Origin: a virus
IMG/VR virus record: IMGVR_UViG_3300047160_036265
Direction: 5' to 3' (one strand)
DNA: 55,242 nt
Of this stretch, positions 16,009-46,592 are shown piece by piece (within the stretch, counting starts at the first letter, position 1; every line of letters starts with the position of its first letter). Under the pieces are notes generated by a model, which worked only from the letters and a program-made list of their open reading frames with translations, ran no database searches and had not been told where the DNA came from. The translations under genes and the position numbers were made by a program.

Positions 16009-16671
16009 TCATTCCCCATATTGTTCCCATTCTTGGCCCCAGCGCTTTTTCAATTCTGCGATGTAGGCGTCGGTTTTTATTTTCCGCATCCACAGCTTGT
16101 GGCCGGTGCCGCCCTTGCACACCACGCCCTCGAACACCGGGTAGCGGCCTTCGCGCACATCACGAATAAACTTCTCGGTGAGCGTCCCTTCATAAATAAC
16201 CGACGAAACGGGCAGGTGTCCGAAAGATTTCAGAAATTCCCAGGCATCCACCAGGCCCTTGCGGTGCAGGTTGACATCAATAAGCACCACGTCCTTCGGG
16301 TCATTATGCTCGGCCTGGATGACCATGTGCTTGGGATCATGCTGACCGCTGAAGGAGTTGGGGCCGAAGAATTCACAATAGGCGATGCCGTCCGTGATCT
16401 TAGGGTACTTGTCCCGGAGGACTTTCGCAACCTGTTCCCCATATTTTTCTTGGAAGAGGCCCACGGCGCAGCCATATTCCGGGTCAGCGGCGTCAAAGGT
16501 ACGGCGGCGGGTGCCGCAGAGCCACCAGCCCTTCTTCTTATTCCACTCGAAGCGCAGGTTGGACCCGTCGTATTTGTAAAAAGCAATACAGGGCTGCCCC
16601 AGGGGCGGCTTGACCCTCGCTCCGTCGATACTCCAGTATTCCTTCATGTGCAACCACCACTCGGCCTTCAC
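16009..16671 (-). CDS. Rnl2-family RNA ligase-like nucleotidyltransferase (220 aa)
   Basis: Motif I KYDGSN (KxDG), motif III CEFFG, motif IV EGVVCKG, motif V KIK. ATGA-coupled to the upstream small ORF. Confidence 0.65.
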   Translation of the reverse strand: MKAEWWLHMKEYWSIDGARVKPPLGQPCIAFYKYDGSNLRFEWNKKKGWWLCGTRRRTFDAADPEYGCAVGLFQEKYGEQVAKVLRDKYPKITDGIAYCEFFGPNSFSGQHDPKHMVIQAEHNDPKDVVLIDVNLHRKGLVDAWEFLKSFGHLPVSSVIYEGTLTEKFIRDVREGRYPVFEGVVCKGGTGHKLWMRKIKTDAYIAELKKRWGQEWEQYGE

Positions 16672-16841
16672 TTCGGCACCTTAGTTATCATCACGTCGTT
16701 CGTGACGTGGCCCAGCTTTTCCGTGGTCAGGGTAGTCTCTGGCACCAGGGCCTTTACTGCCTCCAGAGCCTTCTCCCAGGTGTCGAACTTCTCCACCGTG
16801 TATTCCCTTGGCCCGGTCCTTCTCCAAACGACGTAAAGCAT
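16668..16841 (-). CDS. small protein (57 aa)
   Basis: ATG with GAGGA Shine-Dalgarno. Completely overlaps the ORF at 16681-17034, so one of the two is spurious. Confidence 0.35.
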   Translation of the reverse strand: MLYVVWRRTGPREYTVEKFDTWEKALEAVKALVPETTLTTEKLGHVTNDVMITKVPK

Positions 16842-17034
16842 TCTTCTCGTCCTCACGCTTCTGAATCTTATTGGAGAGGATCACCATATGCGTAATGCCG
16901 CCCCCAAAACCGATGACGGTGAATATGACGGTGAACCACGGTATTGTTCCCAACCAATGGTCGATTAAAACGCCCAAGATGATCGGGGCGACCATCTCCA
17001 GGCCGCACTGAGAGAGGGCCAAATACATGCCCAT
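16681..17034 (-). CDS. small 2-TM membrane protein, AtpZ/AtpI-like (PF09527-like)
   Basis: LALSQCGLEM...LIDHWLGTIPWFTVIFTVIGF pattern. ATG with GAAGGG Shine-Dalgarno. The Gly/Arg-rich C-terminal tail is probably read-through. Confidence 0.35.
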   Translation of the reverse strand: MGMYLALSQCGLEMVAPIILGVLIDHWLGTIPWFTVIFTVIGFGGGITHMVILSNKIQKREDEKNALRRLEKDRAKGIHGGEVRHLGEGSGGSKGPGARDYPDHGKAGPRHERRDDN

Positions 17035-17044
17035 CCCCTTCGGA

Positions 17045-17410
17045 TCATCGTCTGAGGTAATCTTCATATCGCTCGCACGCCTTGCGGCCCTCCTCGGTGA
17101 TCGACCAGCCGGTGTCCTGCCGTACCACCCAGCCGTAGCGCTCCATGTGGCTCATGTAATATCGCTTGAGCTTGGGGTAGCCGCAATCCATCGTGTCAAA
17201 ACCCTGTGGATTCAACCGGGTGACAAGTTCCGGCACCTTGAACCGCCAGAATATGCGTTCCTGGTTGCTGTACTTCCTCACCCCAGGATCAGGATGATGC
17301 GACATATCGCACCACTTGCCGATAATAAGCTCCCGGCCCTCTGCGAGCCACTTGAGGGTCTGGTTCTGCCAGCAAGTGGGGATGCGAGGCTTACTTTTTC
17401 TTTTTGCCAT
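17045..17410 (-). CDS. putative winged-helix protein (121 aa)
   Basis: Internal ATG (MAKRKSKP...) with AAGGAG Shine-Dalgarno. The GWVVRQDTGWSITEEGR region suggests a winged helix. Confidence 0.45.
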   Translation of the reverse strand: MAKRKSKPRIPTCWQNQTLKWLAEGRELIIGKWCDMSHHPDPGVRKYSNQERIFWRFKVPELVTRLNPQGFDTMDCGYPKLKRYYMSHMERYGWVVRQDTGWSITEEGRKACERYEDYLRR

Positions 17411-17921
17411 CGGCCCACTGCTCCTTGAGGAAAGTGGCAACTACTTCCCTCGCACGACTGGAAGTGCCAAAATACAAATCGTGGCCGCACTCCAGTTTGT
17501 CCCAGGGATGGGGTTCCTTGCACAACTTCTCGTAGAAGCCCACGCCCAGCCAGTACAGATATTCCGGCGGGTGGAACTCCATAATGGAGCAACCGTGTTC
17601 CCACGTCCAGAGGGTCACGCAGCGGCCCATGTGGTCTTCGAGGCCGTCGTAGTCCCAATCCTCCGGGTCGGTCCCTTCGGGGCACGGCGGCTTGAAGTGC
17701 ATCCAGTTGTCCCACTCCTGGCGGCTGTTTATATCGCCGGTGTGCTGGACTTTGGCCAGCGGGTAGCCGTCCGAGTCAATGGGATAGGCTTCCAAGCATT
17801 CCCAGCAGTGGTGGAGACGGGCCGCACGAGAGCGTTCGTCCGGCGGCGGCGTGTATTGCCAATAGCAGATAACGCCGTGGGGAATCCGTTCGTCCACTTT
17901 GATGCGGCCCGCCTTGCTCAT
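17391..17921 (-). CDS. hypothetical Cys/His/Trp-rich protein (176 aa)
   Basis: ATGA-coupled to the upstream gene. Confidence 0.5.
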   Translation of the reverse strand: MSKAGRIKVDERIPHGVICYWQYTPPPDERSRAARLHHCWECLEAYPIDSDGYPLAKVQHTGDINSRQEWDNWMHFKPPCPEGTDPEDWDYDGLEDHMGRCVTLWTWEHGCSIMEFHPPEYLYWLGVGFYEKLCKEPHPWDKLECGHDLYFGTSSRAREVVATFLKEQWADGKKKK

Positions 17922-18478: not shown

Positions 18479-18511
18479 GGCTGTGCGGGCAACTGCCCGC
18501 TCCTGTTACCC

Positions 18512-18745
18512 TCACCCACTCGGCCCGCAGCGACCCAGGGCCGCACCCAGCGAATGCGATTGCAAGTCCTTGAGGATCGCCTGCGCCTTGTCACTGATCT
18601 TCGGCGGTTCGACAGGAGGCATCGGGACCGGCAAAATATCGGTCTTGGGAGGGTCCATGACCTTGATCGCCGGCTTCTTGCGGGCCTTCTTGACAGCCTT
18701 CTTACGCTCCTTGTCCACCTTCTTTTTCGTCTTTTTCTTCGCCAT
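18512..18745 (-). CDS. Lys-rich small basic protein (77 aa), possibly nucleic-acid binding
   Basis: N-terminal MAKKKTKKKVDKERKK... ATG with GGAGGGA Shine-Dalgarno. Confidence 0.45.
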   Translation of the reverse strand: MAKKKTKKKVDKERKKAVKKARKKPAIKVMDPPKTDILPVPMPPVEPPKISDKAQAILKDLQSHSLGAALGRCGPSG

Positions 18746-21110: not shown

Positions 21111-22127
21111 TCAGTTCACGTTGAGTTTGTCGCAAAAACGCTCGGCCACGTCAAATACCACGTCAAACTCTTTGAGTCCGTCCACGAGGTTGCGGGGAAA
21201 TATCGAGCTTCCGTGCAGAGCGCCCAGAAGACCCGCCAGCATCGACCCGTTACTGTCCGTGTCGCCGCCCGCCGATACCACGTCGTACAGCGACTCGATG
21301 CTAAGCGGGTTTCGCACGAAGAACATATAGGTGAAGGGCAGGGAGTCGTAGATGTAGCAACTGCCCTTCAAGTCGGTGACGATCTTGCCGGCGTCGTATT
21401 CCTCGTACTGGTAGAGCAACTTCATGCGGGCGTGCAGGTCGTCGTCGCCCTCATCGGCGCTTTTCTTGAATCGCTTGTCCTTGCCCATCAGGGCGGCACC
21501 GACCACGCAGTTGATAAAGGAGTCCACCCGAAAGTCGGCGGGGTCGCTGGTCAGGCATTTGAAAATTGCGAATGCCTGGCACAACCCACTTTGGACTGCC
21601 ATGCGGGCGTTATGGGTCATGCGGGTGTAGTTTTCAATGTCCTGCACGCTCTGACCCCAGGCCGGCTCCTCGCACTGCGGGTTGGTGATCGCCATGTATG
21701 CGCCTAGGGGCGCAATCTTCATGGGGATACCGTTGCCGGTGCCACGTTTGGGTTCCTTGGTCTTGCCGGAAGTGGTCCAGGGTACGCCTTGGGCCAGGCG
21801 AGCCACGGCCTCCTTGGTGGTCTTGCCCCAGCCCCGGACGCTCTTCTTATATTCCTCGACGTGCCAGGCAGCGATGGCATTCAGGTCCAGGCAGCCTGTC
21901 TGAATGATACCCTCGGCGGTAGCCTTGGTCAACTGCCAGTCATCGGTGGTGGTGCCCCGATGGTCGTCATCGAAATACTTGTGGCTGGAGCAGTCGAGGT
22001 AGTCGGTGATGCGCCCGTAGCGCTTCTGAATGCCCTCCAGGGTGTTGCTCTCGGTGGGCTTGCCCAGAGCATCGCCAATAGCAATGCCCAGGAACATGCC
22101 AGTAATACGGTCACGAGTAATCGTCAT
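21111..22127 (-). CDS. ADP-ribosylglycohydrolase (ARH/DraG family)
   Basis: N-terminal RDRITGMFLGIAIGDALGKPTE and C-terminal GGDTDSNGSMLAGLLGALHG, the ARH family Mg-binding signatures. Confidence 0.8.
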   Translation of the reverse strand: MTITRDRITGMFLGIAIGDALGKPTESNTLEGIQKRYGRITDYLDCSSHKYFDDDHRGTTTDDWQLTKATAEGIIQTGCLDLNAIAAWHVEEYKKSVRGWGKTTKEAVARLAQGVPWTTSGKTKEPKRGTGNGIPMKIAPLGAYMAITNPQCEEPAWGQSVQDIENYTRMTHNARMAVQSGLCQAFAIFKCLTSDPADFRVDSFINCVVGAALMGKDKRFKKSADEGDDDLHARMKLLYQYEEYDAGKIVTDLKGSCYIYDSLPFTYMFFVRNPLSIESLYDVVSAGGDTDSNGSMLAGLLGALHGSSIFPRNLVDGLKEFDVVFDVAERFCDKLNVN

Positions 22128-22657: not shown

Positions 22658-24073
22658 CTAACCAGTTTTCTCCGGCAACGGAAGGGTGACAATAAATTCG
22701 CTGCCCTCCCCCAACTTGCTGGTGACGGTAATGGTGCCGCTATGGGCCTCCACAATAGAGCGGACCAAGCTCAGACCGATACCCATACCGCTACCATTTT
22801 GGGTATCAACGATTTTGTGAGCCTGCACGAACAAGTCAAAAATATGGGGCAGGATGTCTTCGGGGATGCCGGGGCCGTTGTCTGTGACCTTGATCTCAAT
22901 GATGGCCTTGATGACCTGGACGGTAAGGCTTATAAGACTGCCGCTAGGTGCAAATTTAAGGGCGTTGCCGATCAAGTTAAAAAACACCTGCTGCCAGCGG
23001 GTGGGGTCGGCATAGATGAGCAAGGGTTCTGCCGGGATGCGCACCTTGAGAATTTGATTTTTCTTTTCGGCGGTAATATAAAGCGTTTCCAGCGCGTTGC
23101 GAACGGCGTGTTGCAGGATCATATCCTGCTTGTGAATCGGCAAGCGGCCCGTGGTGATCCGGGATACGTCGAGCAGGTCATCTACCAGGCGGGTGAGATG
23201 GACGGCTTGCCGCTCAATAATATCCAGGTGCCTCTGAGTGTCGATACCTTTTCGCAGAACCGGCAGCGAAGTGAAAATCGGCGCAAGCGGGTTCCGCAGT
23301 TCGTGGCTCAGCATGGCGATGTACTCGTCCTTGCGATTGTCCTCTGTGCGCAGTTTTTCTTCGGCCTGCTTGCGCTTGGTGATCTCCTCGGAGAACATGA
23401 TGATGCCGCCGATCTCGTCCACCGAACAGTACCAGGGACGCTTTTCCCAGCGCAGCCAGTGGACCATGCCGTTGGGGCGCTCAATATAGTCCTCGTCGCT
23501 GGAGACAGTTTCACCGCCCAGCGCCTTATAAATCGCCGTCTTCCAGCGTTCGGGGATTTCCGGGAATACGTCAAAGTGCCGTCTGCCGATAAGCGAGCGG
23601 CCAGCCTCGCGCTCGGCTGGAAAGAAGTCAACGAGCCAGCGGCGACTAACCGCCACATAGCGCAACTCAGTATCCAAGATGGCGATGGCGGACGGCGAGT
23701 GTTCGATGAGGAGGTTCAGAGTAGTGCGCAGGCGGTTGTAGTCAGTGATGTCATTGTTGACTTCGACAACTTGTACGGACTCGCCCTTGGTGTAAAGGGC
23801 CTGATGGCTGGCAACGGTGAGCCGGCGTCCGTCCTTGCGGGTGTGGATAAGTTCCCCGCTCCACCTGCCGTCGCGCAGAATAGTGGCGGCAATATCCTCG
23901 GCGGGAAGGGCGTGGAAGATCGTTTTGAGGAGTGAATGACTGATCTGGCCAACCGCCTCCTCCTTGGTGAAGCCGTACAGCAGGGCCGCTCCGGCGGACC
24001 AAAACTGGATACGACCGTCGATGTCTCGAATTAACACGTTAGCCACATCGAGAACATCACTCACCGATTTCAT
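22658..24073 (-). CDS. PAS-domain sensor histidine kinase (471 aa)
   Basis: Two PAS-like segments, the HisKA H-box SHELRNPL, and HATPase N/G boxes (NLIGNALKF, DNGPGI, GSGMGIGL). Confidence 0.8.
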   Translation of the reverse strand: MKSVSDVLDVANVLIRDIDGRIQFWSAGAALLYGFTKEEAVGQISHSLLKTIFHALPAEDIAATILRDGRWSGELIHTRKDGRRLTVASHQALYTKGESVQVVEVNNDITDYNRLRTTLNLLIEHSPSAIAILDTELRYVAVSRRWLVDFFPAEREAGRSLIGRRHFDVFPEIPERWKTAIYKALGGETVSSDEDYIERPNGMVHWLRWEKRPWYCSVDEIGGIIMFSEEITKRKQAEEKLRTEDNRKDEYIAMLSHELRNPLAPIFTSLPVLRKGIDTQRHLDIIERQAVHLTRLVDDLLDVSRITTGRLPIHKQDMILQHAVRNALETLYITAEKKNQILKVRIPAEPLLIYADPTRWQQVFFNLIGNALKFAPSGSLISLTVQVIKAIIEIKVTDNGPGIPEDILPHIFDLFVQAHKIVDTQNGSGMGIGLSLVRSIVEAHSGTITVTSKLGEGSEFIVTLPLPEKTG

Positions 24074-24134: not shown

Positions 24135-24704
24135 TCAGATCGCGCCAAGACACTTGTACATGAACAGCACGGGCCAGGTCTTGGCGGAAAACTTGTTGCG
24201 GCTCTCGCACAGGGAACAAACCCCGGCGTAATCCAGCAGGTGGACTTCGATTTCCTCCGTAGCCTCGTTGCCGTCATGGTTGACGGTGCCTTCGCACTCG
24301 CAGAATACCAATACTACAGACTCGTCGGAAAGTCCAGCAGAAGATATGAGAGATGGACTGATTTTGATAATTCCGGTGAGGGTCAGGCCCGTTTCTTCCT
24401 TCAGTTCGCGCTTGGCATCCTGCACAGCATCGGCCTCGCACAGCCCGGCAGGGAAAGCGTACTCATAGTCGTTGAGGGGAATGCGAAACTCACGGAGGAC
24501 CACAAGGCGGCGTTGGCCCTGCTCGTTGACGTGGATGGGTACGATGATAACGGCATCGGGCTTGAGTTGCCCAGAGCCGTTGGCGGGTTCTTTTTTGCGC
24601 GAGGCGAAAATCCAGTCGCCTTCTTTATTGCGGTTCTTCCAGTGGACGGAGAACAAATTGAGCCAGCGGAAGTCGGTGAGCTTCTTAGGGGGAGTCACGT
24701 CCAT
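24135..24704 (-). CDS. Nudix hydrolase (ADP-ribose pyrophosphatase-like; 189 aa)
   Basis: Nudix box ...GLCEADAVQDAKRELKEETGL (REx2EExGL). AGGAGG Shine-Dalgarno. Confidence 0.75.
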   Translation of the reverse strand: MDVTPPKKLTDFRWLNLFSVHWKNRNKEGDWIFASRKKEPANGSGQLKPDAVIIVPIHVNEQGQRRLVVLREFRIPLNDYEYAFPAGLCEADAVQDAKRELKEETGLTLTGIIKISPSLISSAGLSDESVVLVFCECEGTVNHDGNEATEEIEVHLLDYAGVCSLCESRNKFSAKTWPVLFMYKCLGAI

Positions 24705-26056: not shown

Positions 26057-26086
26057 ATTGTACAGCCGGAACGAGGCGGTTGTAAA
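26057..26086 (-). promoter_or_regulatory. promoter P5 (leaderless rnlA-like transcript)
   Basis: TTTACAACC + 18 nt + TACAAT. The predicted start site coincides with the A of the ATG. Confidence 0.6.
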
Positions 26087-26283: not shown

Positions 26284-26376
26284 ATGCACCCGCAAAGGAT
26301 TTGCAACCACAACATTATCGCATCGGAGGCGGTAAATATCAAGGCCATGTCACAGTTTGGCAGCCTGTTCTTCTAA
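26284..26376 (+). CDS. possible small ORF (30 aa) on the plus strand
   Basis: Near-perfect Shine-Dalgarno AGGAGAGGAGGG 5 nt before the ATG. Preceded by a plus-oriented TTTACAAC. Convergently overlaps the 3' end of the gene at 26350-27237 by 27 nt. Confidence 0.25.
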   Translation: MHPQRICNHNIIASEAVNIKAMSQFGSLFF

Positions 26377-27237
26377 TGCGGCTCTCACTCGTGTGGCGTC
26401 GGCCTTTCCTCCTAGCTCTCTTAAAACCGGGCCGATGAGCGAGTTGAGAGCCTGCTTTTTACCCTTCTTGTAGTCTTCAACCACCTTGGGTGATGCCGCC
26501 AGGTACTTCGCCACGGTGGTCGCAACTACGTCCTCCTGGGCAACACTAAGGATGTCCAACGCAAAGATTGCTGTCAAGGCATCAACGCCGTCCCAGCAAT
26601 AAGGAAACACATCCTTTACCTGCTTGGCGGACAGCACCCCCTTCAGTCGCAGGAACAGCAAGCTAGTTATATCATCAGCCAGCCACGGCAGATAGTCCAG
26701 CACGTCGGCTAATGTGAATTTGGTCTGCTCCAGCTTGGCCTGCAACTCGTTAGTCAGGAAATTAAAAACGAGCTTGCACCAGTCGGTCCACTCGGAAGGT
26801 GGCGCAGGCGGCGGTTTGTACCGGGGCATGTAGCCTTCATTCGGTATTTCCACCCACTCAATATCAGGCCAGTTCCGCTTTTTCTTGAGGCGAAGCCACC
26901 TTTCCAAACTCCCCTGCCCCAACAACCGCCAGCTAAAGCGGCGACTTTGTGGGGGATGTTGAAGCGTTTGCCGCCCCTCAACCTTTTTGCGCTCCGGGGC
27001 TTGGAGATCGGGCACAGTGATAAACATATGCCAATCTGGCACGCTTGCCTCTGCTGGCTTTCCCTGCATCTCGTAATACGGGAACTTCATCAGCCAGTAG
27101 ACTGCCTGACCCAGCTTATCGGTGGACCGCTCCCAATATTCCCGCTCGGCCTCCAGCCAAAAAGAAACGCCGTCTCCCGGTGGGGAGCCGGCGTTTTGCC
27201 ATTTGAAGTAGGCCCGCAGCCTAATGTCGTCAAGCAT
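26350..27237 (-). CDS. DUF2934-like N-terminus fused to a GatB/YqeY-domain C-terminus (about 295 aa)
   Basis: N-terminal IRLRAYFKW...WLEAEREYW. C-terminal VAKYLAASPKVVEDYKKGKKQALNSLIGPVLRELGGKADATRVRAALEEQ resembles the GatB C-terminal/YqeY domain. ATG with GAGGAAGG Shine-Dalgarno. Confidence 0.55.
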   Translation of the reverse strand: MLDDIRLRAYFKWQNAGSPPGDGVSFWLEAEREYWERSTDKLGQAVYWLMKFPYYEMQGKPAEASVPDWHMFITVPDLQAPERKKVEGRQTLQHPPQSRRFSWRLLGQGSLERWLRLKKKRNWPDIEWVEIPNEGYMPRYKPPPAPPSEWTDWCKLVFNFLTNELQAKLEQTKFTLADVLDYLPWLADDITSLLFLRLKGVLSAKQVKDVFPYCWDGVDALTAIFALDILSVAQEDVVATTVAKYLAASPKVVEDYKKGKKQALNSLIGPVLRELGGKADATRVRAALEEQAAKL

Positions 27238-27430
27238 CGGCCTTCCTCGTAATTTCAAATTTCAGCGTGGTGAGATCATAGCCCCGTGCCTGAAGCTCTT
27301 GGCATTGCGCTTCGCTCAAGATGTCGGCCAGGAGCCGGCGATCTGGACCATTGGGGCCGTCGAATAGCAACTGCTTGCCCTTGTGGCGCTCGCCCCGCAG
27401 GTAGCCGTAATAGGCACGGAGCTTCTTCAC
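27230..27430 (-). CDS. hypothetical protein (66 aa)
   Basis: ATGA-coupled to the upstream gene. Confidence 0.45.
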   Translation of the reverse strand: MKKLRAYYGYLRGERHKGKQLLFDGPNGPDRRLLADILSEAQCQELQARGYDLTTLKFEITRKADA

Positions 27431-33225: not shown

Positions 33226-33261
33226 GACTTTCTCCAAGGGGTGTTGAGGATTCTGGTTATG

Positions 33262-35709: not shown

Positions 35710-35922
35710 CTAGTTGACATTCCCCGATTCTACGTCGGGATTCTTCGGTTGTAAAGCATCATTGACGTGCGGCTCACACCAACAGCCGTGGATGCGGATG
35801 CCTCCGCAGTTACAACAATATTGGTTGAGGAAGCCCCGGATGAATTCGAGTCGGTCTTCGGGGCGGAAGTGCTTCTGCCGTTCCAGAAACTCATCGTAAA
35901 GCTGCTTGGCTGACTCCAGCAT
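35710..35922 (-). CDS. Cys-rich small protein (70 aa)
   Basis: CCNCGGIRIHGCWCEPH motif. ATG with GGAGGGG Shine-Dalgarno. Confidence 0.5.
   Translation of the reverse strand: MLESAKQLYDEFLERQKHFRPEDRLEFIRGFLNQYCCNCGGIRIHGCWCEPHVNDALQPKNPDVESGNVN
35727..35755 (-). promoter_or_regulatory. promoter P9 (inside the 3' end of the upstream gene)
   Basis: TTTACAACC + 17 nt + TAGAAT. Confidence 0.55.
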
Positions 35923-37396: not shown

Positions 37397-38395
37397 CTAT
37401 ATACTCCGTTTCCTCGCCGCATTCAGCCAGGACAGGTAGAACTTCTCCATGTGAATGTCAATGAAGGCGTCGTCCCGGCCCCCTTCGACCTTACGGTAAG
37501 GGGCAAAAACCTCGTCCCAAAGGGCCTGGCTCTCCTCACAATATAAGGCCAGGAAGTCCTTCTCTTGGCAGGGTTCCATGTCGCGCAGATTGCACGAACG
37601 GTCGAAGAACTTGATGACCTTGGCTTCCCACGAGACGGACTGCAAATGCTCCCGGTCCATCTTCTTGCGTTCGGCCCGGCGCAACTTCGACCCCTTGCTG
37701 GGGTTGGTCAGTTCCAGCACCAGCTTCAAAACGTCCTCGCCCGCTGTACTGATAATGGCCGAGTGCGGAACGCCGGGGCAGTCCTCCACAACATCATGGA
37801 GCCACGCCGCCTTGCCCATGCGGAGCCACTGGTCCAGAGGGAGATCACGCCGCCACCAGTTGATGCGATCAAATACCTGCGACGGGTGCAGGATGAAATC
37901 GCCCCCACCATATTTCCGCTTCTGGCCTTCATGGGCGCAATAAGCCAGGAGAATGGTATTTCGCAGGCTCTTGTCCATGAACATGCCATGAACGAACATA
38001 TGACAGTTGACGCAGGTGCCGTCGCCGCTGAGGTTCCAACAAGTGTTGCGCCAATCGTGGTTGCACGCCAGCATCTCGGTGAGACGGGTGTGGGCCATCC
38101 GTTCGGCGGCGATCCAGCCCCCGGCCTTGTCGCCGGAGCTTCCGCCCATCACGCTGAAGCGGGCGCGATGGATGGCCTTGTTGTGCCAAAAATCGAGGGC
38201 GGTGATATGTTCTGGGACCGGCACGAACACGGTAATGCCGCAGTTGGGATCGTTGGGGTTCTCGCTCAGAACGTATTCCAGCCCCAGCTTGCGGTTATAG
38301 GAGCAGCGGATGTCAGCATCCTCCGGCCAATCGAGTTGGCACTGGTATTTACCGCCTGGGGGTGGACTGTTGATGATGGGAACGAGGGGTTTCAT
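37397..38395 (-). CDS. RelA/SpoT-type HD-domain protein (small alarmone hydrolase-like) with N-terminal Cys-rich domain (about 332 aa)
   Basis: AHEGQKR...FILHP, AAWLHDVVEDC and FDRSCNLRDM, matching the (p)ppGpp hydrolase HD motifs. ATG (MKPLVP...) overlaps the upstream TAA (TAATG). Confidence 0.7.
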   Translation of the reverse strand: MKPLVPIINSPPPGGKYQCQLDWPEDADIRCSYNRKLGLEYVLSENPNDPNCGITVFVPVPEHITALDFWHNKAIHRARFSVMGGSSGDKAGGWIAAERMAHTRLTEMLACNHDWRNTCWNLSGDGTCVNCHMFVHGMFMDKSLRNTILLAYCAHEGQKRKYGGGDFILHPSQVFDRINWWRRDLPLDQWLRMGKAAWLHDVVEDCPGVPHSAIISTAGEDVLKLVLELTNPSKGSKLRRAERKKMDREHLQSVSWEAKVIKFFDRSCNLRDMEPCQEKDFLALYCEESQALWDEVFAPYRKVEGGRDDAFIDIHMEKFYLSWLNAARKRSI

Positions 38396-38787
38396 TAGTT
38401 GCTCCATGAGGCGAAGATACGTTTGACCGCCAAGACACAGTTGCCTGGGGCTAGGACGGTCAGGACAGGTACGTTGGACGGCATCCGCAGGGTTGAGTGA
38501 ATATCGACCTGATAATCCGCCACAGAAGCGAATACCGGGCAGGCGATGACGATATGAGGGGTATTGGCGGCAACCATGCCGGATAAAGCGTTTGACCGCC
38601 CAGCAACCGTGACGAAGACCACCTGATCCTCATTTTCAAATCTGCCGAGAATTTCGAGTAGTTCCCTGGGGCTTTTATGGGCGGAACAGTAATGGATGGA
38701 AACAGGGAAAGATTCCCGAAAGGGGTTGGCGATTTGTTCAACGTGGTCCTTGTCCTTCTCGGAACCAGCGATAATAACGAGTATCAT
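38395..38787 (-). CDS. PurE-like (AIR carboxylase family) protein (130 aa)
   Basis: IIAGSEKD...SAHKSP...AGRSNALSGMVAANT...IACPV, matching PurE signature blocks. ATGA-coupled. Confidence 0.65.
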   Translation of the reverse strand: MILVIIAGSEKDKDHVEQIANPFRESFPVSIHYCSAHKSPRELLEILGRFENEDQVVFVTVAGRSNALSGMVAANTPHIVIACPVFASVADYQVDIHSTLRMPSNVPVLTVLAPGNCVLAVKRIFASWSN

Positions 38788-39511: not shown

Positions 39512-40142
39512 TCTGGTTCTCCAGGGCCAGAATCAGCCGGTCCACGCCAATGGCCCAGCCAATCCCGCAGTCATAGCGCCCGCCGCCCGCCACCTGCTTT
39601 TGGGCACCCAAGCTAGGCACTTCTACCTCGAAGCCGTCTTCAACATAATAGGACAAGCCACGCTTGACGCTCGCGTTGAGGACGTAATTCTCCAGCCCGA
39701 TTGTACGGAGAAACAGGTCCAGAAGTTTAGTCATTTCCTCCTTACTGGCGGTTCCGCCCAGGTTCTCCACCCCGAATTGCCAGAATTCCCGGTAACGACC
39801 GGCCTGGGGACGGTCATAACGGTAACACCGGCTGAGGTAGAAGACCTTGACGGGTTTGGGCAGGACTTTGCTCCAGTCGTTCTTAAATTCCGCCTGGACG
39901 ATGGCGGTGACTTCCGGGATGAGGCAGATTTCCCTGCCGCCCAGGTCGTCAAAGACGTACATCTGGCCCAGGATTTCAGGCCCGGCCTTGTCGGTGAAGA
40001 CTTCCGAAGAGGCCAACAGCGAGGGGAAGAACTCCTGATAGCCTTCAGCAATGGCGGTGTAGCGCAGGGTGTCGGTCGCGTCCCGAAACGCCTTGGCCTT
40101 GGCCCCGAACAGGTGGCGGGTGCCTCTAATCGAGTTTGACAT
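39492..40142 (-). CDS. HisRS-like class II aminoacyl-tRNA synthetase catalytic-core protein (216 aa; no anticodon-binding domain)
   Basis: GTRHLFG...MYVFDDLGGREICLIPEVTA (motif 1 region), CYRYDRPQAGRYREFWQFG (motif 2), GGGRYD (motif 3). Confidence 0.7.
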   Translation of the reverse strand: MSNSIRGTRHLFGAKAKAFRDATDTLRYTAIAEGYQEFFPSLLASSEVFTDKAGPEILGQMYVFDDLGGREICLIPEVTAIVQAEFKNDWSKVLPKPVKVFYLSRCYRYDRPQAGRYREFWQFGVENLGGTASKEEMTKLLDLFLRTIGLENYVLNASVKRGLSYYVEDGFEVEVPSLGAQKQVAGGGRYDCGIGWAIGVDRLILALENQNGGQSF

Positions 40143-41091
40143 CTCCGCTCATCAACCCTTCTCGAATGCGTTCCAGCCCCCGCTCCCGCAGTTGCCGGAC
40201 TCGTTCCTTGGTCAAGCCCAAGTCCTTGCTAATCTCCTTCAAGGTACGCTTTGTGCCGCCATTCTTCAAGCCAAACCACTGTTCGATGACGTATCGCTTG
40301 CGGTCGTCTTCATCGCCCAAGGTCTTCATCAGGCGGGCCACGTTCTTCTTGACAAGCTCCTTCCCCTCCTCATAGTCCCGCAGGTCTTCGTCGCTGGTGT
40401 CCAGGCGGGTGTCATAAATCCCGTCATCAAAACCAGTCACAAACCGCTCATTAAAGGTTCGCTCACCGGCCAGATCACGGGTGAAGTTGTTAAGCAGAAC
40501 CCAGGTGGCGTAGGTGGAGAATTTGAAACCACGGGTCCAATCGAAGCAGTCCACGGCCTTAACGATGTTCATATAAGCATCGGCAAGCAAGTCGTGCATG
40601 AGGCTGTGGGAGCGGTAAAAGTCCGTCCGCTTCCGCAACACCTGAGCGGCGAGGCGGGTGTTGGAACACACGAGTTGGTGCTTCACAACCTCGGCTTGTT
40701 TCAGACATAACTCAACCCGCTCAATAGATTTCAGCGCCCGCTCGTGTTGCTCCGGGGTCGGGGCCTTGGAGCGCCGCAAGGTCCGGGTCAGACGACGGGC
40801 TTTGTACTTGAGGAAGTTATATTTGCGAAACAAATGCCGCTCCTGGTCTTTATCCAGCAGCGGCTCCTGGTATAATGGCATCAGTTCGCTAGGAATATTC
40901 TGGTGCTTGAGCTTGGCGACTTCCTGGCGCTTCTCGTTGAATTCATCCATCCGGGGCATCTCAGCCAGGATTTCCGCCTGCATAGAGCGGAGATCGAAGT
41001 CCGGCGACTTGAATATCTTGAACTTCGGGCTGCTCACATAACTCACCAATTCTTTCGCGCGCTGCGCAATGTCATCCTTTACTGCCAACAT
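40126..41091 (-). CDS. sigma-70 family sigma factor (321 aa)
   Basis: Region 2 DLLADAYMNIVKAVDCFDWTRGFKFSTYATWVL. Region 4 TLKEISKDLGLTKERVRQLRERGLERIR. AAAGGAGG Shine-Dalgarno. Own P10 promoter. Confidence 0.85.
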   Translation of the reverse strand: MLAVKDDIAQRAKELVSYVSSPKFKIFKSPDFDLRSMQAEILAEMPRMDEFNEKRQEVAKLKHQNIPSELMPLYQEPLLDKDQERHLFRKYNFLKYKARRLTRTLRRSKAPTPEQHERALKSIERVELCLKQAEVVKHQLVCSNTRLAAQVLRKRTDFYRSHSLMHDLLADAYMNIVKAVDCFDWTRGFKFSTYATWVLLNNFTRDLAGERTFNERFVTGFDDGIYDTRLDTSDEDLRDYEEGKELVKKNVARLMKTLGDEDDRKRYVIEQWFGLKNGGTKRTLKEISKDLGLTKERVRQLRERGLERIREGLMSGDVKLD

Positions 41092-41122: not shown

Positions 41123-41152
41123 ATTATATGCTAAATCGAGATGGTTGTAAAG
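41123..41152 (-). promoter_or_regulatory. promoter P10 (sigma factor gene)
   Basis: TTTACAACC + 17 nt + TATAAT. Confidence 0.65.
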
Positions 41153-41168: not shown

Positions 41169-41576
41169 TTACGGAACGGGCACCAAGAAAGAGTTGAGCG
41201 CCCGGACGATATTCCGCACCTTATATCCCTTGGGGTGGTCCACGACCACCGTTATTTCCTGATCGGCCACGGCCCAGGGCTTGCCGGCGGCGTTGCTTTC
41301 GATGATGACGTAGACCATAGAGTTGTGGGTATAGCGGCGGCTATAACCCAGGCGGTCCCACAGTTCCTTGGCCTGCGGGGATTGGAAAATAAAAAACTCG
41401 TTGCGATCCAGCCTGGAGCGACCCCGCAAGCTAGGTGCGCCGTTAGGCGGGTCGTCATACTCCACCACCATTTCCGGCCAGTGGGCTTTGCACAGACCGA
41501 GAATGCCCTTCTCGATCTGTGCATATTTCTTGCCTTCCGGCCAGGTGTAGAGCAGATCGTAACCGCCGATTTCCAT
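41169..41576 (-). CDS. hypothetical protein (135 aa)
   Basis: ATG overlaps the upstream stop. Confidence 0.5.
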   Translation of the reverse strand: MEIGGYDLLYTWPEGKKYAQIEKGILGLCKAHWPEMVVEYDDPPNGAPSLRGRSRLDRNEFFIFQSPQAKELWDRLGYSRRYTHNSMVYVIIESNAAGKPWAVADQEITVVVDHPKGYKVRNIVRALNSFLVPVP

Positions 41577-43138
41577 TATTTACCGCAGGTTGGGTCGTAT
41601 TTGTGCATCATCTGATTGATGGTAGCCAGGTCCAGCGGTTTGACCAGGAAATCATGGAATCCGGCGTCCTGGGCACGCTGGCGGTCCTTCTCCTGGCCGA
41701 AGCCGGTGACGGCGATGACTTTTGTTTCCGGCACGAGGCGGATCAACTCCTGGCAGACCTTGTAGCCGTCCATGTAGGGCAGGCCAATGTCCAGCAGCAC
41801 GATATTGGGTACGAACTCGGTCGCGCTCTTCAGGGCCGCTGGGCCATCGTTGGCCACCCACACGTCGTAGCCCTGCATCCGCAGCATGGCCACCATGCTG
41901 TCCGCCGCATCCACATTGTCATCCACGACGAGGATGCGGCAGTCCTTGGTAGGGGCGATGGGGAATGACGCAGGTTCCCCGGTATCCTCCTTGCGTGGTG
42001 AACCGCCCTCGATGGATTCCGGTACGGGAACCTCGTCGCCCACATCGCTTACGGGGAATTCGATGCTGAAGGTGGACCCCAGGTTGAGGCCCGGCGAATG
42101 AGCGGCAACGGTTCCTCCCTGAAGCTCCGTCAACTGCTTGACGAGGCTCAGACCTACTCCCAGACCGCCGTGGGTCTGGTATTCGCCCCGGCGCTCGGCC
42201 TGCACGAACAGGTCGAAAATACGGGGCAGCATGGTTTCGGAGATGCCGATGCCGGTATCCACGACTTCGATTTTTACCTTCTTCTGGTCATCCGAGAGGA
42301 GGCAGTTGAGACGGATTTTTCCACCCGGTTCCGTATATTTGGCAGCGTTGTTGAGCAAATTGGAAATCGCCTGCTCGACACGGGGCGCATCGCCCACCAT
42401 CCAGATCGCCTCGGACGGGATGGAAATGTATAAGGAGTGATAGCGGGTGTCGATGGCGGGCCGTGACTGGTCGATGGCGTTGGAAATGGCCCGCTGAAGC
42501 TGGACTGGCTCCTGCTTGATATTGATTTTGCCCCGGCTGATGCGGGCCATGTCCAGCAAGTCATCCAGCAACCGGCCCATATGCTTGACCTGGCGCTCGA
42601 TGATATTACGGTGGTCGCGCAGTACGGCGTCCTGGTTGCCGTCGCGCATCCGGGACACCTGGAGCGACGACAGGATTGGGGCCAGCGGGTTGCGCAGTTC
42701 GTGGGACAGAACGGCCAGGAACTCATCCTTGCGGCGGTCGGCCTCGGCCAGTTCGTCAATCCACTTCTTGCGTTCGCTGATGTCCCGAATAACGGCGACA
42801 ATCCCCTCCTGGTCGCCGTGGTTGAACTTGGACAGGGACATCTCGACGGCGAATTCCTCACCGTTACGACGCCGGCCCACCGTCTCGACCAGTGAGCCGA
42901 TCATGGGGCCTTCCCCGGTGGCCTTATAGTGGACGATACCCCGTGCCATCTCCTCCTGCATACGCAGCGGCACGAAGTCCGCACAGGCAACAACCTTGTT
43001 GACCATCTCCTCCTGCCGATAGCCGAACATCCGTTCCGCCGCCGGGTTGAAATGGGTGATGAGCAAGTCCTGGTTGGCGATGATGATGGCATCCTGGGCG
43101 CTGTCGAGGATGGCTTGCAACATGGCTATATCCTCCAT
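41576..43138 (-). CDS. hybrid sensor histidine kinase (PAS-HisKA-HATPase-REC; about 520 aa)
   Basis: H-box SHELRNPL, N/G boxes LLNNAAKY, DTGIGI, GGLGVGL. C-terminal receiver ILVVDDN...LLDIGLPYMDG...KPLD. TGATG coupling. Confidence 0.8.
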   Translation of the reverse strand: MEDIAMLQAILDSAQDAIIIANQDLLITHFNPAAERMFGYRQEEMVNKVVACADFVPLRMQEEMARGIVHYKATGEGPMIGSLVETVGRRRNGEEFAVEMSLSKFNHGDQEGIVAVIRDISERKKWIDELAEADRRKDEFLAVLSHELRNPLAPILSSLQVSRMRDGNQDAVLRDHRNIIERQVKHMGRLLDDLLDMARISRGKINIKQEPVQLQRAISNAIDQSRPAIDTRYHSLYISIPSEAIWMVGDAPRVEQAISNLLNNAAKYTEPGGKIRLNCLLSDDQKKVKIEVVDTGIGISETMLPRIFDLFVQAERRGEYQTHGGLGVGLSLVKQLTELQGGTVAAHSPGLNLGSTFSIEFPVSDVGDEVPVPESIEGGSPRKEDTGEPASFPIAPTKDCRILVVDDNVDAADSMVAMLRMQGYDVWVANDGPAALKSATEFVPNIVLLDIGLPYMDGYKVCQELIRLVPETKVIAVTGFGQEKDRQRAQDAGFHDFLVKPLDLATINQMMHKYDPTCGK

Positions 43139-43539
43139 CACCCCTGGTCAGGGGGCAGTTCCGTAAAGAAGTCCTCGGATTGCTCGACAACCTCTTGCCC
43201 CCCTTGTCGTGCAGCGAGTTTGTGACCCAGACGGAGCAGACCTAGCGCGATATGCGGAGGAAGGTTATGAACCTCCATTTGCAGGTCAATGCCCATAAGC
43301 TCGAACCTGGGCAGCAAGAGAACGAATTGCGGTTGCGGCCTCTTGCGCAACTCGGCCAGCAGTTGATCGGTTGTAGCCAACTCCAGGTCGAGTTGCAAGG
43401 GGTCTTTTCCCACAAGGACGTTCAGACGTTGCTGCAAGTCATGTGCCCGAACTTTGTAGCGGTACAAACGAAAAACCAGATAACCCCCCATCGCCGTGAG
43501 CAGCAGCGCCGTGAGGCTGGCAACTACGAGGTTGAACAT
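43138..43539 (-). CDS. membrane-anchored protein (about 133 aa)
   Basis: Internal ATG (MFNLVVAS...) with AAGGAGAGGG Shine-Dalgarno. N-terminal TM helix. Immediately upstream of the hybrid kinase. Confidence 0.5.
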   Translation of the reverse strand: MFNLVVASLTALLLTAMGGYLVFRLYRYKVRAHDLQQRLNVLVGKDPLQLDLELATTDQLLAELRKRPQPQFVLLLPRFELMGIDLQMEVHNLPPHIALGLLRLGHKLAARQGGQEVVEQSEDFFTELPPDQG

Positions 43540-43760: not shown

Positions 43761-43765
43761 AGCCC

Positions 43766-44314: not shown

Positions 44315-44318
44315 GGGA

Positions 44319-44738
44319 TTACCCCTTACACCAGAACGCCCCGCAATCCCGTGAACCATCCACGTTGCGCTTGTAGAGATACCCTTCCGCCTGTTTGCTA
44401 TTGTAGTCCTCAAACACCTTGGTGTCAGTAGGCAAAAAGGCCAAGTTCATCTCCTTGAACTCCAGGTATTTACGCTCATACAGACCGTGGGCAACGGCCT
44501 CCACCACGTCCAGTTGCTTGAGGCATTCCTCATCAATTTCGTACAGTTCTCCGTAGATCGGACTGCCGGCCCCCTGCTCGGCGTCCACCATCGCAGGATG
44601 CCCGGCCAACTGGTGGATGCGGTAGTTGGGCTTGGTAATACCGATGCCCAGGTAACGCTGGCCCTGCAAGTAGCGGTAGCGCGTGTGGCCCTGCTTCAAA
44701 GTCCCATATACGAACATGATATGCTTTCTCGTTGTCAT
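44319..44738 (-). CDS. gamma-glutamyl cyclotransferase-like (AIG2/GGCT family) protein
   Basis: MFVYGTLKQG...GELYEI, the family signature. AGGAGAAA Shine-Dalgarno. Confidence 0.7.
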   Translation of the reverse strand: MTTRKHIMFVYGTLKQGHTRYRYLQGQRYLGIGITKPNYRIHQLAGHPAMVDAEQGAGSPIYGELYEIDEECLKQLDVVEAVAHGLYERKYLEFKEMNLAFLPTDTKVFEDYNSKQAEGYLYKRNVDGSRDCGAFWCKG

Positions 44739-44789
44739 TTTTCTCCTAAGCCAATGTAATCAAGGCGGCAGCCAACCCTCCAAGGTAAC

Positions 44790-44951
44790 TCACTTGGCAT
44801 TAAGAACCAGTGAGAAGCCCAGGGCGAAAGCCCCCGCAATACAACCGAGTAAAAAGGCCACCAAAATCCAACTCACCAGCTTGCTGAGTGGGTTGGTTTC
44901 GGTGGCCTTTTGTTGCCGCACCAGGCGGCTGGTATCCCATCTCGGCTTCAT
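44790..44951 (-). CDS. small membrane protein (about 53 aa)
   Basis: Internal ATG 4 nt after the upstream stop. Hydrophobic C-terminus. Confidence 0.35.
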   Translation of the reverse strand: MKPRWDTSRLVRQQKATETNPLSKLVSWILVAFLLGCIAGAFALGFSLVLNAK

Positions 44952-44955
44952 GCCA

Positions 44956-45231
44956 TTATGTAGCACAGCAGCGCACGAAGAAATCGTGCATCTCGAACAA
45001 CTTCTTGGCCTTGGCGTCACCGGGTTGAGGCTTGCGGCCCCGACCTCCGCTGCCGTACAGGGCGTCCATCCGCAGCAGTGCCTCAGCCATGTCGGCCTCC
45101 CCCGCCATGCCGTACTGCGCGAGGGTCGTATGCAACGCCGTCAAGCGCCGGTGCGCCCTACCATCCCGGTCGGCGGCTACCTTCAGCTTGTCGTAGAAGC
45201 TGGAGCCGGACGGCAGCAGTTGCAGGTTCAT
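44956..45231 (-). CDS. hypothetical protein (about 91 aa)
   Basis: ATG (MNLQLL...) with GAAGGGGA Shine-Dalgarno. Confidence 0.4.
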   Translation of the reverse strand: MNLQLLPSGSSFYDKLKVAADRDGRAHRRLTALHTTLAQYGMAGEADMAEALLRMDALYGSGGRGRKPQPGDAKAKKLFEMHDFFVRCCAT

Positions 45232-45277
45232 TAACACAGTCGTTCCCCTTCTTGTGAAAGCCAGTTTCTCCCGTGCC

Positions 45278-45889
45278 CTATATTACTTCCGTAGTGCCGT
45301 CAAACGAAACCGCAAACAGGTTGAGCAGCAAGTTTTCCAGTCCAACTGCCTGCCGCTCCACCAGACCGGCACCCAGGCAATATATACAGAAGCCAATGAA
45401 GGTTTCCCACAACGCAGAGGGTCCGCACAGCCATGATGCGCTGAGGGGATGGCCGTATTTCTTGACGACCCCCTCCTCGATCAAGCTGCTGGCCTTCACC
45501 CGGTTTTCAATCGTTACGACCGGGAAGACCATGTTGAAGGTTTGCTGGGGCTGAGCCTGGCAGACGAGCCTGTTGCCGGCCAGCGCAGACACTTTCCTGA
45601 TGTCGGTAAGCGGATGATTGGGCGGGCAAAACAGCCAAGGCCCTGAAGGTAGGTCGCTAACCAGGAGACTGGCGTAACGATCAATCGCCCGGTTGTCCAG
45701 ATCGGTCTGCCCAGGGACGCAGACCACTCCCAACTCCTTTAGTTTTTCTTTGCCATCCGGCGGTATTCCATAGTCCACTGCCGCTCCGGGCAGGCTCAAA
45801 GTCTTCAGCGACCTGGCCCAATTAACACCGCTGACTCTCCACGAAGTTTCATCGAACTCGGTGATGACGGTCGGGTTTATTTCATTCAT
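45278..45889 (-). CDS. hypothetical protein (about 203 aa)
   Basis: Internal ATG (MNEINPT...) with AAGGAGA Shine-Dalgarno. Confidence 0.5.
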   Translation of the reverse strand: MNEINPTVITEFDETSWRVSGVNWARSLKTLSLPGAAVDYGIPPDGKEKLKELGVVCVPGQTDLDNRAIDRYASLLVSDLPSGPWLFCPPNHPLTDIRKVSALAGNRLVCQAQPQQTFNMVFPVVTIENRVKASSLIEEGVVKKYGHPLSASWLCGPSALWETFIGFCIYCLGAGLVERQAVGLENLLLNLFAVSFDGTTEVI

Positions 45890-46592
45890 TATTCTCCTTA
45901 TTTCTGGCAAAATCAACGTATGAGAGTTCCGCAAGGCACTGGAACAGCGTGCCGTGGATGTCCATGATCTTGTCCTGGGGGTGATGCCCAAATATCCAGC
46001 GCTTGGGCTTGTGATACTCCCAGGAGAACATCTGGTCGAGCGCTTCCGCCGTGCGGCTGGGACTGAGGCCCTTGCGGTCGAAACTGCCGTTGGTCTGGAA
46101 ATGCGAGATTACCGACTTCGGGCATTCGTGGGTGATGACGAATTCGGGCTTGATACGCTGATAAAGCTCGATAGCCTCCCGAAGCGTGGCGTAGTCAAGC
46201 TGCTCCTTATCCCACCAGTTGACACCGCTGACCCGCACCACCTTATCAATGCTATCGCCGCCCCGCACGAAGAAGATATTGCCGAAGCCGGGAACCGCAT
46301 AAGTCCCGTAATCCCCAAGGAAATGGGCCGGTTGCAGGGCGAATTTACCGGCGGCGTCCTCGGTGTAGTTGTCGTGGTTGCCAGCCACAATACGGTGCCG
46401 CTTGGCGTCGAGGTTGTGGACCAGATAGCTGTAGGCGTCACCAGCGCCCGTGGTGTAACAATCCCCCACCTGGATGCTGTATTCGGCGTCCTTGGCCAGT
46501 TCGACATATTTGCCCAGCTTGCCGTGAACATCTCCGATCACGCGCAGGAATGGCTTGATGGTGAAATCGTCACGCTTTTTCTTCGTCTTCAT
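45882..46592 (-). CDS. calcineurin-like metallophosphoesterase (236 aa)
   Basis: GDVHG, GDxxxxG, GNHD and GHH motifs of the PPP/lambda-phosphatase fold. Confidence 0.75.
   Translation of the reverse strand: MKTKKKRDDFTIKPFLRVIGDVHGKLGKYVELAKDAEYSIQVGDCYTTGAGDAYSYLVHNLDAKRHRIVAGNHDNYTEDAAGKFALQPAHFLGDYGTYAVPGFGNIFFVRGGDSIDKVVRVSGVNWWDKEQLDYATLREAIELYQRIKPEFVITHECPKSVISHFQTNGSFDRKGLSPSRTAEALDQMFSWEYHKPKRWIFGHHPQDKIMDIHGTLFQCLAELSYVDFARNKENNE

Follow-up and report, generated by a model that had tools for sequence, protein, structure and literature searches.

Why would a single stretch of viral DNA encode three RNA ligases, and which broken RNAs would they mend? Phage RNA ligases are a classic counter to host defences that cut tRNA, and several of the principal tools of molecular biology come from them. 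We asked this question of IMG/VR virus record IMGVR_UViG_3300047160_036265, a stretch of 55,242 nucleotides (the window: the whole stretch of DNA that was analysed, 55 kb). A first-pass annotation had proposed an RnlA-like ligase (here ligase A), a PF09414-type RNA ligase (ligase B) and an Rnl2-like minimal nucleotidyltransferase (ligase C), accompanied by candidate end-healing enzymes. As judged by alignment, all three ligases carry the complete motif set of the covalent nucleotidyltransferases together with a conserved motif-I lysine. We put the probability at roughly 60% that all three are RNA ligases using the standard lysyl-adenosine monophosphate (AMP)/AppRNA pathway, with the Rnl1-family ligase A acting on anticodon-loop breaks, ligases B and C acting on other breaks, and the kinase and phosphatase coming from elsewhere.

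Under this reading, a huge phage would carry three non-orthologous ATP-dependent RNA ligases within a repertoire for counter-defence and RNA maintenance. Each enzyme would be adenylylated on its motif-I lysine, would pass the AMP to a 5'-phosphate RNA end, and would then join that end to a 3'-OH. Ligase A would most likely reseal breaks in tRNA anticodon loops, as T4 Rnl1 does, and ligases B and C would most likely seal other broken RNAs, either structured RNA that is nicked or ends whose chemistry is special. Genes outside the window, or the host, would supply the 5'-kinase and 3'-phosphatase steps that follow cuts by metal-independent nucleases. The motifs, the folds, the assignments to families and the gene contexts are shown below; the substrates and a role in counter-defence are our inference.

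Three ligase families in one window

Ligase A belongs to the Rnl1 (T4 RnlA) family. It matched PF09511 (E = 2.4e-17), phrog_562 over residues 39-349 (E = 3e-56) and the T4 Rnl1 structures 2c5u, 5tt6 and 9do4 in the PDB (E about 1e-21), which bears out its first label as an RnlA-like ligase. In the phmmer alignment to 2c5u, its EKLDGS (motif I, K89-LDGS), FEFVAP (motif III), EGYVV (motif IV) and KAK (motif V, K219-A-K) fall on TKEDGS, FEFVAP, EGYVA and KIK, positions that we take to be K99, E159, E227, K240 and K242 of T4 Rnl1. Because its alignments reach model positions 372 of 377 in phrog_562 and 367 of 373 in TIGR02308, ligase A probably has an Rnl1-type C-terminal region, although its score against TIGR02308 (E = 3.6e-29, 102 bits) lies below the 242-bit equivalog cut-off. 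We favour the short ATG start at 26050 over a longer TTG open reading frame (ORF) because a promoter-like motif ends 6 nt before it. This spacing suggests that the Rnl1 transcript is nearly leaderless.

Ligase B is a stand-alone nucleotidyltransferase whose match to PF09414 (E = 8.8e-31, 107.8 bits vs. a cut-off of 27) agrees with the earlier assignment. It also matched phrog_34045 (E = 1e-73) and phrog_24030 (E = 9e-68). Its motifs read YPRTPHL, EKMDGE, CGEN, EGYVVR and AKYVR, and K42, D44, G45 and E46 (motif I), G90 and E91 (III), E166, G167 and R171 (IV) and K187 and R190 (V) are invariant in 30 homologues. The protein stops 33 residues past R190 of motif V and so has no Rnl2-type C-terminal domain; an oligonucleotide-binding (OB) domain is missing as well. 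The family is large, with >7,900 homologues that are mostly cellular and carry the name “RNA ligase family protein” or the doubtful one “2'-5' RNA ligase,” and some of its members bear N-terminal HNH domains. Direct and profile sequence searches of the PDB with ligase B and its family gave no significant ligase match.

Ligase C represents a family of >530 proteins of ~215 aa, many of which have a precomputed PF09414 match. The window protein had no Pfam match at E <= 0.1, did not reach the PF09414 gathering score, and had only a weak PHROGs match (phrog_548, E = 2.4e-5). Neither the protein nor its family profile had a significant sequence match in the PDB, so a fold comparison was needed. The AlphaFold model (pLDDT, the predicted local distance difference test, of 92.9) retrieved RNA ligases at all of Foldseek ranks 1-24, and the predicted fold is closest to the nick-sealing RNA ligases Rnl5, REL1 and Rnl2. 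It forms a single domain, and the 220-aa protein stops ~21 residues past K199. The motifs are KYDGSN, EFFG, FD, EGVVCK and RKIKT. Across 40 homologues, K33, D35 and G36 (motif I), E100 and G103 (III), D132 (IIIa), E181, G182 and K186 (IV) and K197 and K199 (V) are invariant. The Rnl2-like label stands for the invariant KYDGSN motif set and the RNA-ligase fold, whereas the Rnl2-type C-terminal domain is missing. The true start of the protein may be M9, at 16647.

Comparison of the B and C profiles with hhalign gave a probability of 64% over only 39 columns around motif IV. The two are thus only remotely related, and with A in the Rnl1 family the window holds three ligase lineages, as had been claimed. 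The motif-I lysines are conserved in each family, and none of the three enzymes groups with DNA ligases or capping enzymes.

Conservation and gene context

In phage databases, the best relatives of several window genes lie in huge phages from metagenomes (485-735 kb), in Lak phages, in XacN1 and in other jumbo phages. Because of these relatives, and because synteny with the window extends to contigs of 41-151, 346 and 673 kb, we treat it as part of a huge phage. When 21 kb of its sequence was compared with GenBank phages by megablast, 0 matches came back, leaving no close GenBank phage, and no virion genes lie inside the window.

The related contigs of 41-151 kb, with ERZ27264556 k141_6290215 as the 151-kb one, keep the order metallophosphoesterase, HD/HNH-like/ligase B, YqeY/Rnl1/NUDIX and ligase C. 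A 673-kb contig (L010; locus labels are ours) keeps Rnl1, NUDIX, ADP-ribosylglycohydrolase and ligase C, and a 346-kb contig (L012) keeps the same order from NUDIX onward, where the stretch examined begins. The run from Rnl1 through an ~80-aa ORF and NUDIX to ADP-ribosylglycohydrolase is retained in the divergent huge-phage contigs L008 and L010, with its first three genes also in this order in L006. The gene for the GatB/YqeY-domain protein lies directly upstream of Rnl1, an adjacency kept in L006 and L008. The “glutamyl-tRNA amidotransferase” of XacN1 was considered as an orthologue of this protein and rejected, as BLASTP found no similarity. SmpB is the partner protein of transfer-messenger RNA in ribosome rescue. 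In L010 (673-kb ERZ12294693 scaffold_68_c1), a gene for SmpB (PF01668, E = 1e-55) sits at L010:4550-4981, between ADP-ribosylglycohydrolase and ligase C; the window itself has no SmpB match.

Among GenBank phage records, families B and C are confined to large phages: ligase C occurs in 16, all of 385-642 kb, and ligase B in 33 of 143-735 kb. Rnl1 occurs in 1,668. Both B and C are present in LR745208, LR745206, LR756502 and XacN1, and Caulobacter jumbo phages have Rnl1 alongside B. There are 134 relatives of ligase C on IMG/VR viral contigs, many of which are 200-570 kb long, but of 185,579 cellular species genomes only 34 have the ligase. The closest cellular copies are on contigs of phage-like size in metagenome-assembled genomes (MAGs), and more distant ones occur in Gemmata, Plesiocystis and cyanobacteria.

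Immediately upstream of ligase B in the window is the gene for an HNH-like protein, which is abutted in turn by that for a SpoT-type HD protein without a Walker A motif. The HNH-like gene is followed by ligase B in the same order in four other loci (L001, L002, L006 and L007). The claim of HNH nucleases in the window is supported for the gene next to ligase C (15506-15973) and weakly supported for this one, which matched Pfam HNH at E = 0.08 (13.5 bits) and had no match in PHROGs or NCBIfam scans; its orthologue at L006:8985-9959 is borderline (E = 3.3e-4, 21.2 bits, cut-off 21.4). We considered whether the HNH-like ORF is the split-off HNH domain of B-family fusions. This is unproven, as the BLASTP alignment is not significant (E = 1) and covers only the CxxC…HH core. 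ORF261 of XacN1 was rejected as an orthologue of the HNH-like ORF because it has no BLASTP similarity.

The HD protein, a candidate healer that the first-pass annotation had not listed, matched phrog_990 (E = 2.9e-18), TIGR00691 of RelA/SpoT (E = 3e-8) and, below the 27.2-bit cut-off, PF13328 (E = 9.8e-6, 25.8 bits). In a Deltaproteobacteria MAG and in Lysinibacillus (L013, L015 and L016), a gene combining HD and AAA_33 kinase domains directly adjoins the ligase B homologue. No such fusion of an HD phosphoesterase with a 5'-kinase lies beside ligase B in the window. A correspondence between the window HD protein and the HD domain of bacterial HD-Pnk is unsupported, as the protein is SpoT-like and no specific similarity was detectable.

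Directly downstream of ligase C is the better supported HNH gene, which is probably a recent, mobile homing-endonuclease insertion because it is absent from the otherwise collinear relative L008/L009 (L008:10665-11198). De novo clustering of the neighbours of ligase C in 80 viral loci found a Metallophos_2 phosphoesterase most often (8/80), followed by NADAR and NAMPT (7/80 each). The Metallophos_2 gene, which belongs to a family distinct from that of the window's own phosphoesterase, directly abuts ligase C in three independent viral lineages.

The window contains 6 exact copies of a sigma-70-like promoter motif, TTTACAAC-N14-20-TAnAAT, against 0 expected by chance, and every one of them is on the coding strand. 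Near matches occur at 12283, 20733, 31263 and 33283. These motifs appear to split the region into transcription units. By their positions, one unit would span from the sigma-factor gene to ligase B and would include the genes for the HisRS-like, PurE-like, HD and HNH-like proteins. The positions of these and other features are collected in Table 1.

Table 1. Features of the window, with selected neighbours of ligase C on other viral contigs (last row)
Feature	Position	Strand	Evidence or remark
tRNA, anticodon CUA (amber suppressor)	2264-2337	minus	ARAGORN; Rfam RF00005, 60.3 bits
Exact promoter-motif matches	2202-2230, 2350-2379, 26057-26086, 35727-35755, 41123-41151, 53782-53810	minus (all)	
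693-aa ORF	9558-11639	minus	weak DUF4139 match
HNH endonuclease, directly downstream of ligase C	15506-15973	minus	phrog_2255, E = 2.3e-6
Ligase C, minimal ligase-type nucleotidyltransferase, ~215 aa	16009-16671	minus	start 16671 (GTG) or 16647 (ATG, M9)
ADP-ribosylglycohydrolase, DraG/Tri1-like	21111-22127		
PAS-HisKA-HATPase sensor kinases (two; one a hybrid with a receiver domain)	22658-24073, 41576-43141		
NUDIX hydrolase, NudE-like	24135-24704	minus	PF00293, E = 1.3e-8; NF008736 NudE, E = 6.6e-10, below cut-off; two genes downstream of Rnl1
Ligase A, Rnl1 (T4 RnlA) family, 361 aa	24965-26050	minus	PF09511, phrog_562, T4 Rnl1 structures
Promoter-like motif TTTACAACC-N15-TACAAT	26057-26086	minus	ends 6 nt before Rnl1 ATG
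DUF2934 + GatB/YqeY-domain protein	26350-27258	minus	PF02637, E = 8e-20; PF11154, E = 5e-10; GatB C-terminal models, E ~ 1e-16
AAA protein, most like proteasome ATPase Mpa/ARC	28751-30424		TIGR03689, 303 bits, below cut-off
WGR+PARP-type ADP-ribosyltransferase	31600-33237		
Ligase B, stand-alone PF09414 nucleotidyltransferase, 223 aa	35891-36562	minus	PF09414, phrog_34045, phrog_24030
Cys/His-rich HNH-like protein, 270 aa	36584-37396	minus	CxxC...HH...CxxCH pattern
HD-domain metal-dependent phosphohydrolase, SpoT/HD_4 type, 336 aa	37397-38407	minus	abuts HNH-like gene
PurE-like protein	38395-38787		
Truncated HisRS/HisZ-like class II core, 216 aa	39492-40142	minus	TIGR00442, E = 5e-45, below cut-off
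Sigma-70-family factor	40126-41091		
Calcineurin-like metallophosphoesterase, 236 aa	45882-46592	minus	PF00149, E = 4.4e-10, 40.8 bits vs. cut-off 21.5; phrog_1649, E = 2.9e-18
ClpX, including zinc finger	48038-49369		
M50 site-2-type peptidase	49414-50481		
Phosphoribosyl pyrophosphate (PRPP) synthetase	53821-55089		
Metallophos_2 / NADAR / NAMPT neighbours of ligase C	L078:3825-4469, L079:9363-10007, L027:9279-9950, L035:10743-11564; L062:7442-7996, L096:5402-6835		

Scans of the ORFs against Pfam, PHROGs and NCBIfam revealed a mixture of ORFans and cellular-type genes. The G+C content is ~58% across the window, with GC3 > GC1 > GC2 by codon position. Two sensor kinases and a sigma factor suggest that the phage runs its own signal transduction and transcription control; the kinase at 22658-24073 is missing from the syntenic relative L008. 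The AAA protein, ClpX and the M50 peptidase make up a proteolysis and unfoldase set. Genes for nicotinamide adenine dinucleotide (NAD)/ADP-ribose and nucleotide metabolism are dense, namely those for ADP-ribosylglycohydrolase, the NudE-like NUDIX hydrolase, the WGR+PARP protein, the PurE-like protein and PRPP synthetase. The 693-aa DUF4139-like ORF is syntenic and conserved in L008, L010 and L012.

The first-pass annotation had also pointed to an amber-suppressor tRNA, a YqeY-like protein and a HisRS-like protein as signs of a tRNA-centred conflict. All three are present, as ARAGORN, Rfam and Pfam/NCBIfam matches confirmed, and a tRNA-centred reading is plausible for Rnl1 alone. The HisRS-like protein is without an anticodon-binding domain, and the relatives L006 and L007 do not have its gene. 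The tRNA has a promoter-like motif copy of its own. The window does not appear to be TAG-recoded because TAG still ends 10 of the 78 ORFs in our gene set.

End healing and the alternative readings

Breaks left as 2',3'>P and 5'-OH ends by PrrC, RloC and colicin-type nucleases need healing before the standard pathway is able to seal them, and the enzymes first put forward for this step fared poorly. The ORF at 12292-12702, whose DxDxT motif had made it a candidate, was rejected as a HAD phosphatase of the T4 Pnkp type. It has no family match in Pfam, PHROGs or NCBIfam, and DxDxT occurs 4 times in the window vs. 3.3 expected by chance. Its context, RELERDVDDT, has no hydrophobic strand before the motif, and the first Asp, the would-be nucleophile, is lost in the orthologue (EIDDT).

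The calcineurin-like phosphoesterase is a genuine member of PF00149, and its metal-binding residues D21, H23, D44, N72, H73, H155 and H203, of the motifs GDxHG, GD, GNH[DE], H and GHH, are invariant. However, its family profile found only Dbr1 in the PDB (E = 1.8e-6), and Foldseek with its model (pLDDT 87.8) retrieved Dbr1 (8e-8, with a template-modelling score of 0.55-0.63) and Rv0805 (3e-6), followed by PptH, LpxH and Mre11. A healer of the λ-phosphatase or CthPnkp type was rejected, as its VGDCYTTG is without the DRG of GDxxDRG and neither enzyme is in the Foldseek top 50. A distance of 9.3 kb separates the gene from the nearest ligase, and at least one promoter-like motif (41123-41151) falls in between. 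It could be an RNA or nucleotide phosphodiesterase, tied to the ligases by nothing more than co-occurrence in the phage lineage. As candidate 3'-end or 2'-5' phosphodiesterases, both this Dbr1-like protein and the HD protein are only possible.

Several further observations weigh against the reading of three classical RNA ligases. Pfam and PHROGs scans of essentially all ORFs of the window found no PNK, HAD, 2H, RtcB, Tpt1 or RlaP, and, as first reported, no P-loop polynucleotide kinase is present: Walker A motifs occur only in the AAA ATPase and ClpX. Because it has no 5' kinase, the window alone is unable to mend the ends named above, and no complete repair pathway is demonstrated. The HD protein, being SpoT-like, is more simply explained as an alarmone hydrolase. 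The ligases lie 9-10 kb apart, and separate promoter-like motifs precede A and B, with none mapped directly upstream of C. Within ±10 kb of ligase C in the 80 viral loci, Rnl1 occurs in 6/80 and B in 1/80, and across these loci no conserved A/B/C linkage extends beyond close relatives. Cellular copies of ligase C have no conserved repair partner, their neighbours being GST, DUF819, SecA and RidA. Rnl2, Rnl5 and DNA ligases bind their substrates with C-terminal or OB domains that are missing from ligases B and C, and we came across no confirmed member of either family that has been characterised biochemically. Finally, Runella slithyformis has an HD-Pnk, reportedly described by Munir and Shuman in 2017. 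Beside it is a ligase-like protein that forms an enzyme-AMP but, when tried on 3'-OH/5'-PO4 substrates, sealed none of them (Munir et al. 2018, PMC6097658). If ligase B is of that family, classical sealing by B would not be assured, because the Runella protein sealed nothing tested.

This last point leads to the alternative that survives best, which we nevertheless regard as unlikely. Here, only Rnl1 repairs RNA, and ligases B and C, although adenylyltransferases of the ligase fold, do something non-classical that is tied to the nearby PARP-like WGR transferase, NUDIX and ADP-ribosylglycohydrolase. They might join 2'-phosphate ends or ends derived from ADP-ribose or NAD, or might adenylylate RNA 5' ends without sealing them. 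The Runella partner of HD-Pnk, which self-adenylylates, fits such a role, and its operon includes Tpt1, an NAD-dependent 2'-phosphotransferase (PMC6097658). So do the WGR+PARP, NUDIX, ADP-ribosylglycohydrolase and PRPP synthetase genes of the window, the order Rnl1, NUDIX, ADP-ribosylglycohydrolase … ligase C kept across divergent huge-phage contigs, and the NADAR and NAMPT genes near ligase C. The Lysinibacillus B locus likewise adjoins genes for a nicotinamide mononucleotide (NMN) transporter, a NadR-like protein, NrtR and NADAR, and published surveys tie part of phage RNA repair to NAD/ADP-ribose enzymes, the neighbourhoods of T4-like tRNA ligases included (Iyer et al. 2022, PMC9503650). 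Yet all of this is association, and every linkage occurs in <10% of loci outside close relatives. The NAD/ADP-ribose genes also have well-supported roles of their own against defences that deplete NAD or ADP-ribosylate their targets, and the window has no Tpt1/KptA. That the Runella ligase-like protein may belong to family B follows from gene arrangement alone. A specific form of this idea, in which B and C are minimal single-domain enzymes, strongly enriched in huge phages, that act on 2'-phosphate, ADP-ribosylated or NAD-derived RNA ends in a circuit with NUDIX, ADP-ribosylglycohydrolase and WGR-PARP, seems to us rather improbable. If it were true, the phage lineage studied here could help to identify what the bacterial partner ligase of HD-Pnk acts on.

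It is similarly doubtful, in our judgment, that the ligases are unrelated accessory genes gathered independently, with no coordinated arsenal and with the metallophosphoesterase, HD and HNH proteins unrelated to RNA repair. The ligases might then serve in RNA processing, in tail-fibre attachment (reported for T4 Rnl1, and included in the PHROGs label of the Rnl1 family) or in sealing DNA/RNA hybrids. The scattered positions of the ligases, the different promoter-like motifs of A and B, and the lack of linkage outside close relatives all agree with this, as do the mobile insertion beside C, the SpoT-like character of the HD protein and the presence of the phosphoesterase family in T4-like rhizobiophages. 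By contrast, it does not readily explain why two or three of the ligase families co-occur in several independent jumbo-phage lineages, why the HNH-like gene and ligase B form a conserved pair, why bacterial relatives of B stand in heal-and-seal pairs, or why Metallophos_2 abuts C in three independent viral lineages.

Very improbable, finally, is an origin of the window in cellular DNA of Planctomycetota or similar, with the ligases as host RNA-repair genes: some C homologues do come from MAGs labelled Planctomycetota, Gemmatales and Pirellulaceae and from Gemmata sp. IIL30, a good number of the genes are of cellular appearance (such as those for histidine kinases, a sigma factor, ClpX and PRPP synthetase), virion genes are lacking and the 693-aa DUF4139-like ORF has no GenBank phage match at E <= 1e-5, but almost every gene lies on the minus strand, the genes are tightly packed with many ORFans and a homing-type HNH insertion, B, C and the phosphoesterase find their best matches in phage databases among huge phages (485-735 kb), relatives of C abound on IMG/VR viral contigs, and the closest “MAG” matches lie on phage-sized contigs such as a 249-kb “Nanoarchaeota” contig.

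Comparison with known RNA-repair systems

T4 Rnl2 needs its C-terminal domain for nick recognition and for step 2 of the reaction, and neither B nor C has such a domain. Ligase C shares only 15-18% identity with Rnl5 (Naegleria gruberi NgrRnl), Trypanosoma REL1 and T4 Rnl2, and both the N-terminal OB domain of Rnl5 and the C-terminal domain of Rnl2 and REL1 are missing from it. Likewise, the window phosphoesterase is 15-19% identical to Dbr1 and Rv0805; it keeps the canonical Asp in GDxHG but is without the C-terminal domain of Dbr1.

In T4, Rnl1 and Pnkp together repair the tRNA anticodon loop and so counter the PrrC nuclease. Ligase A shares with T4 Rnl1 the placement of motifs I, III, IV and V, although their identity is only about 27-30%. 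The T4 arrangement is otherwise distinct, as the window contains neither Pnkp nor any other 5' kinase/3' phosphatase, whereas T4 is without the YqeY/GatB-domain and NUDIX neighbours that are conserved beside ligase A. The Runella system resembles the bacterial homologues of ligase B, which share its order of ligase then HD-Pnk. By contrast, the phage locus has a different, SpoT-like type of HD protein and no kinase.

The closest parallel is with other jumbo phages. These combine RtcB, Rnl1 and Rnl2, as in BcepSaruman, and XacN1 has three Rnl2-family paralogues (Iyer et al. 2021, PMC7824862). The authors of that study, Iyer, Anantharaman, Krishnan, Burroughs and Aravind, judged such stacked ligases to be non-redundant, noted that some Rnl2 members are fused to HNH domains, and found that end healing usually falls to PNK-HAD, 2H or cRec and rarely to calcineurin-like or HD enzymes (PMC7824862). 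The proposal of counter-defence RNA repair agrees with these comparative genomics, with the reservation that the window holds no 5' kinase for PrrC-, RloC- or colicin-type ends. The first interpretation of this window is in essence the published one, because the same points were made in 2021 (PMC7824862) and 2022 (PMC9503650). To call the set “unusually rich” overstated the case, since multi-ligase jumbo phages had been published (PMC7824862) and XacN1 encodes homologues of B and of C, at 47.8% and 31.7% identity, respectively.

Compared with these repertoires, the window likewise has several non-orthologous ATP-dependent RNA ligases, an HNH association and a calcineurin-like or HD protein as a possible healer. 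It differs in that no PNK-HAD, 2H, cRec or RlaP partner was seen, in that the HNH-like protein is encoded by a separate gene rather than as a fusion, and in its combination of Rnl1 with B and C. That giant phages stack non-redundant RNA ligases was already published (2021, PMC7824862), and the window confirms and extends this picture while leaving it unchanged. What it adds is a well-supported case of three ligase lineages, Rnl1, B and C, in one huge phage, and it draws attention to two minimal families, of which C is nearly confined to huge phages and B has bacterial relatives that pair with an HD-kinase gene.

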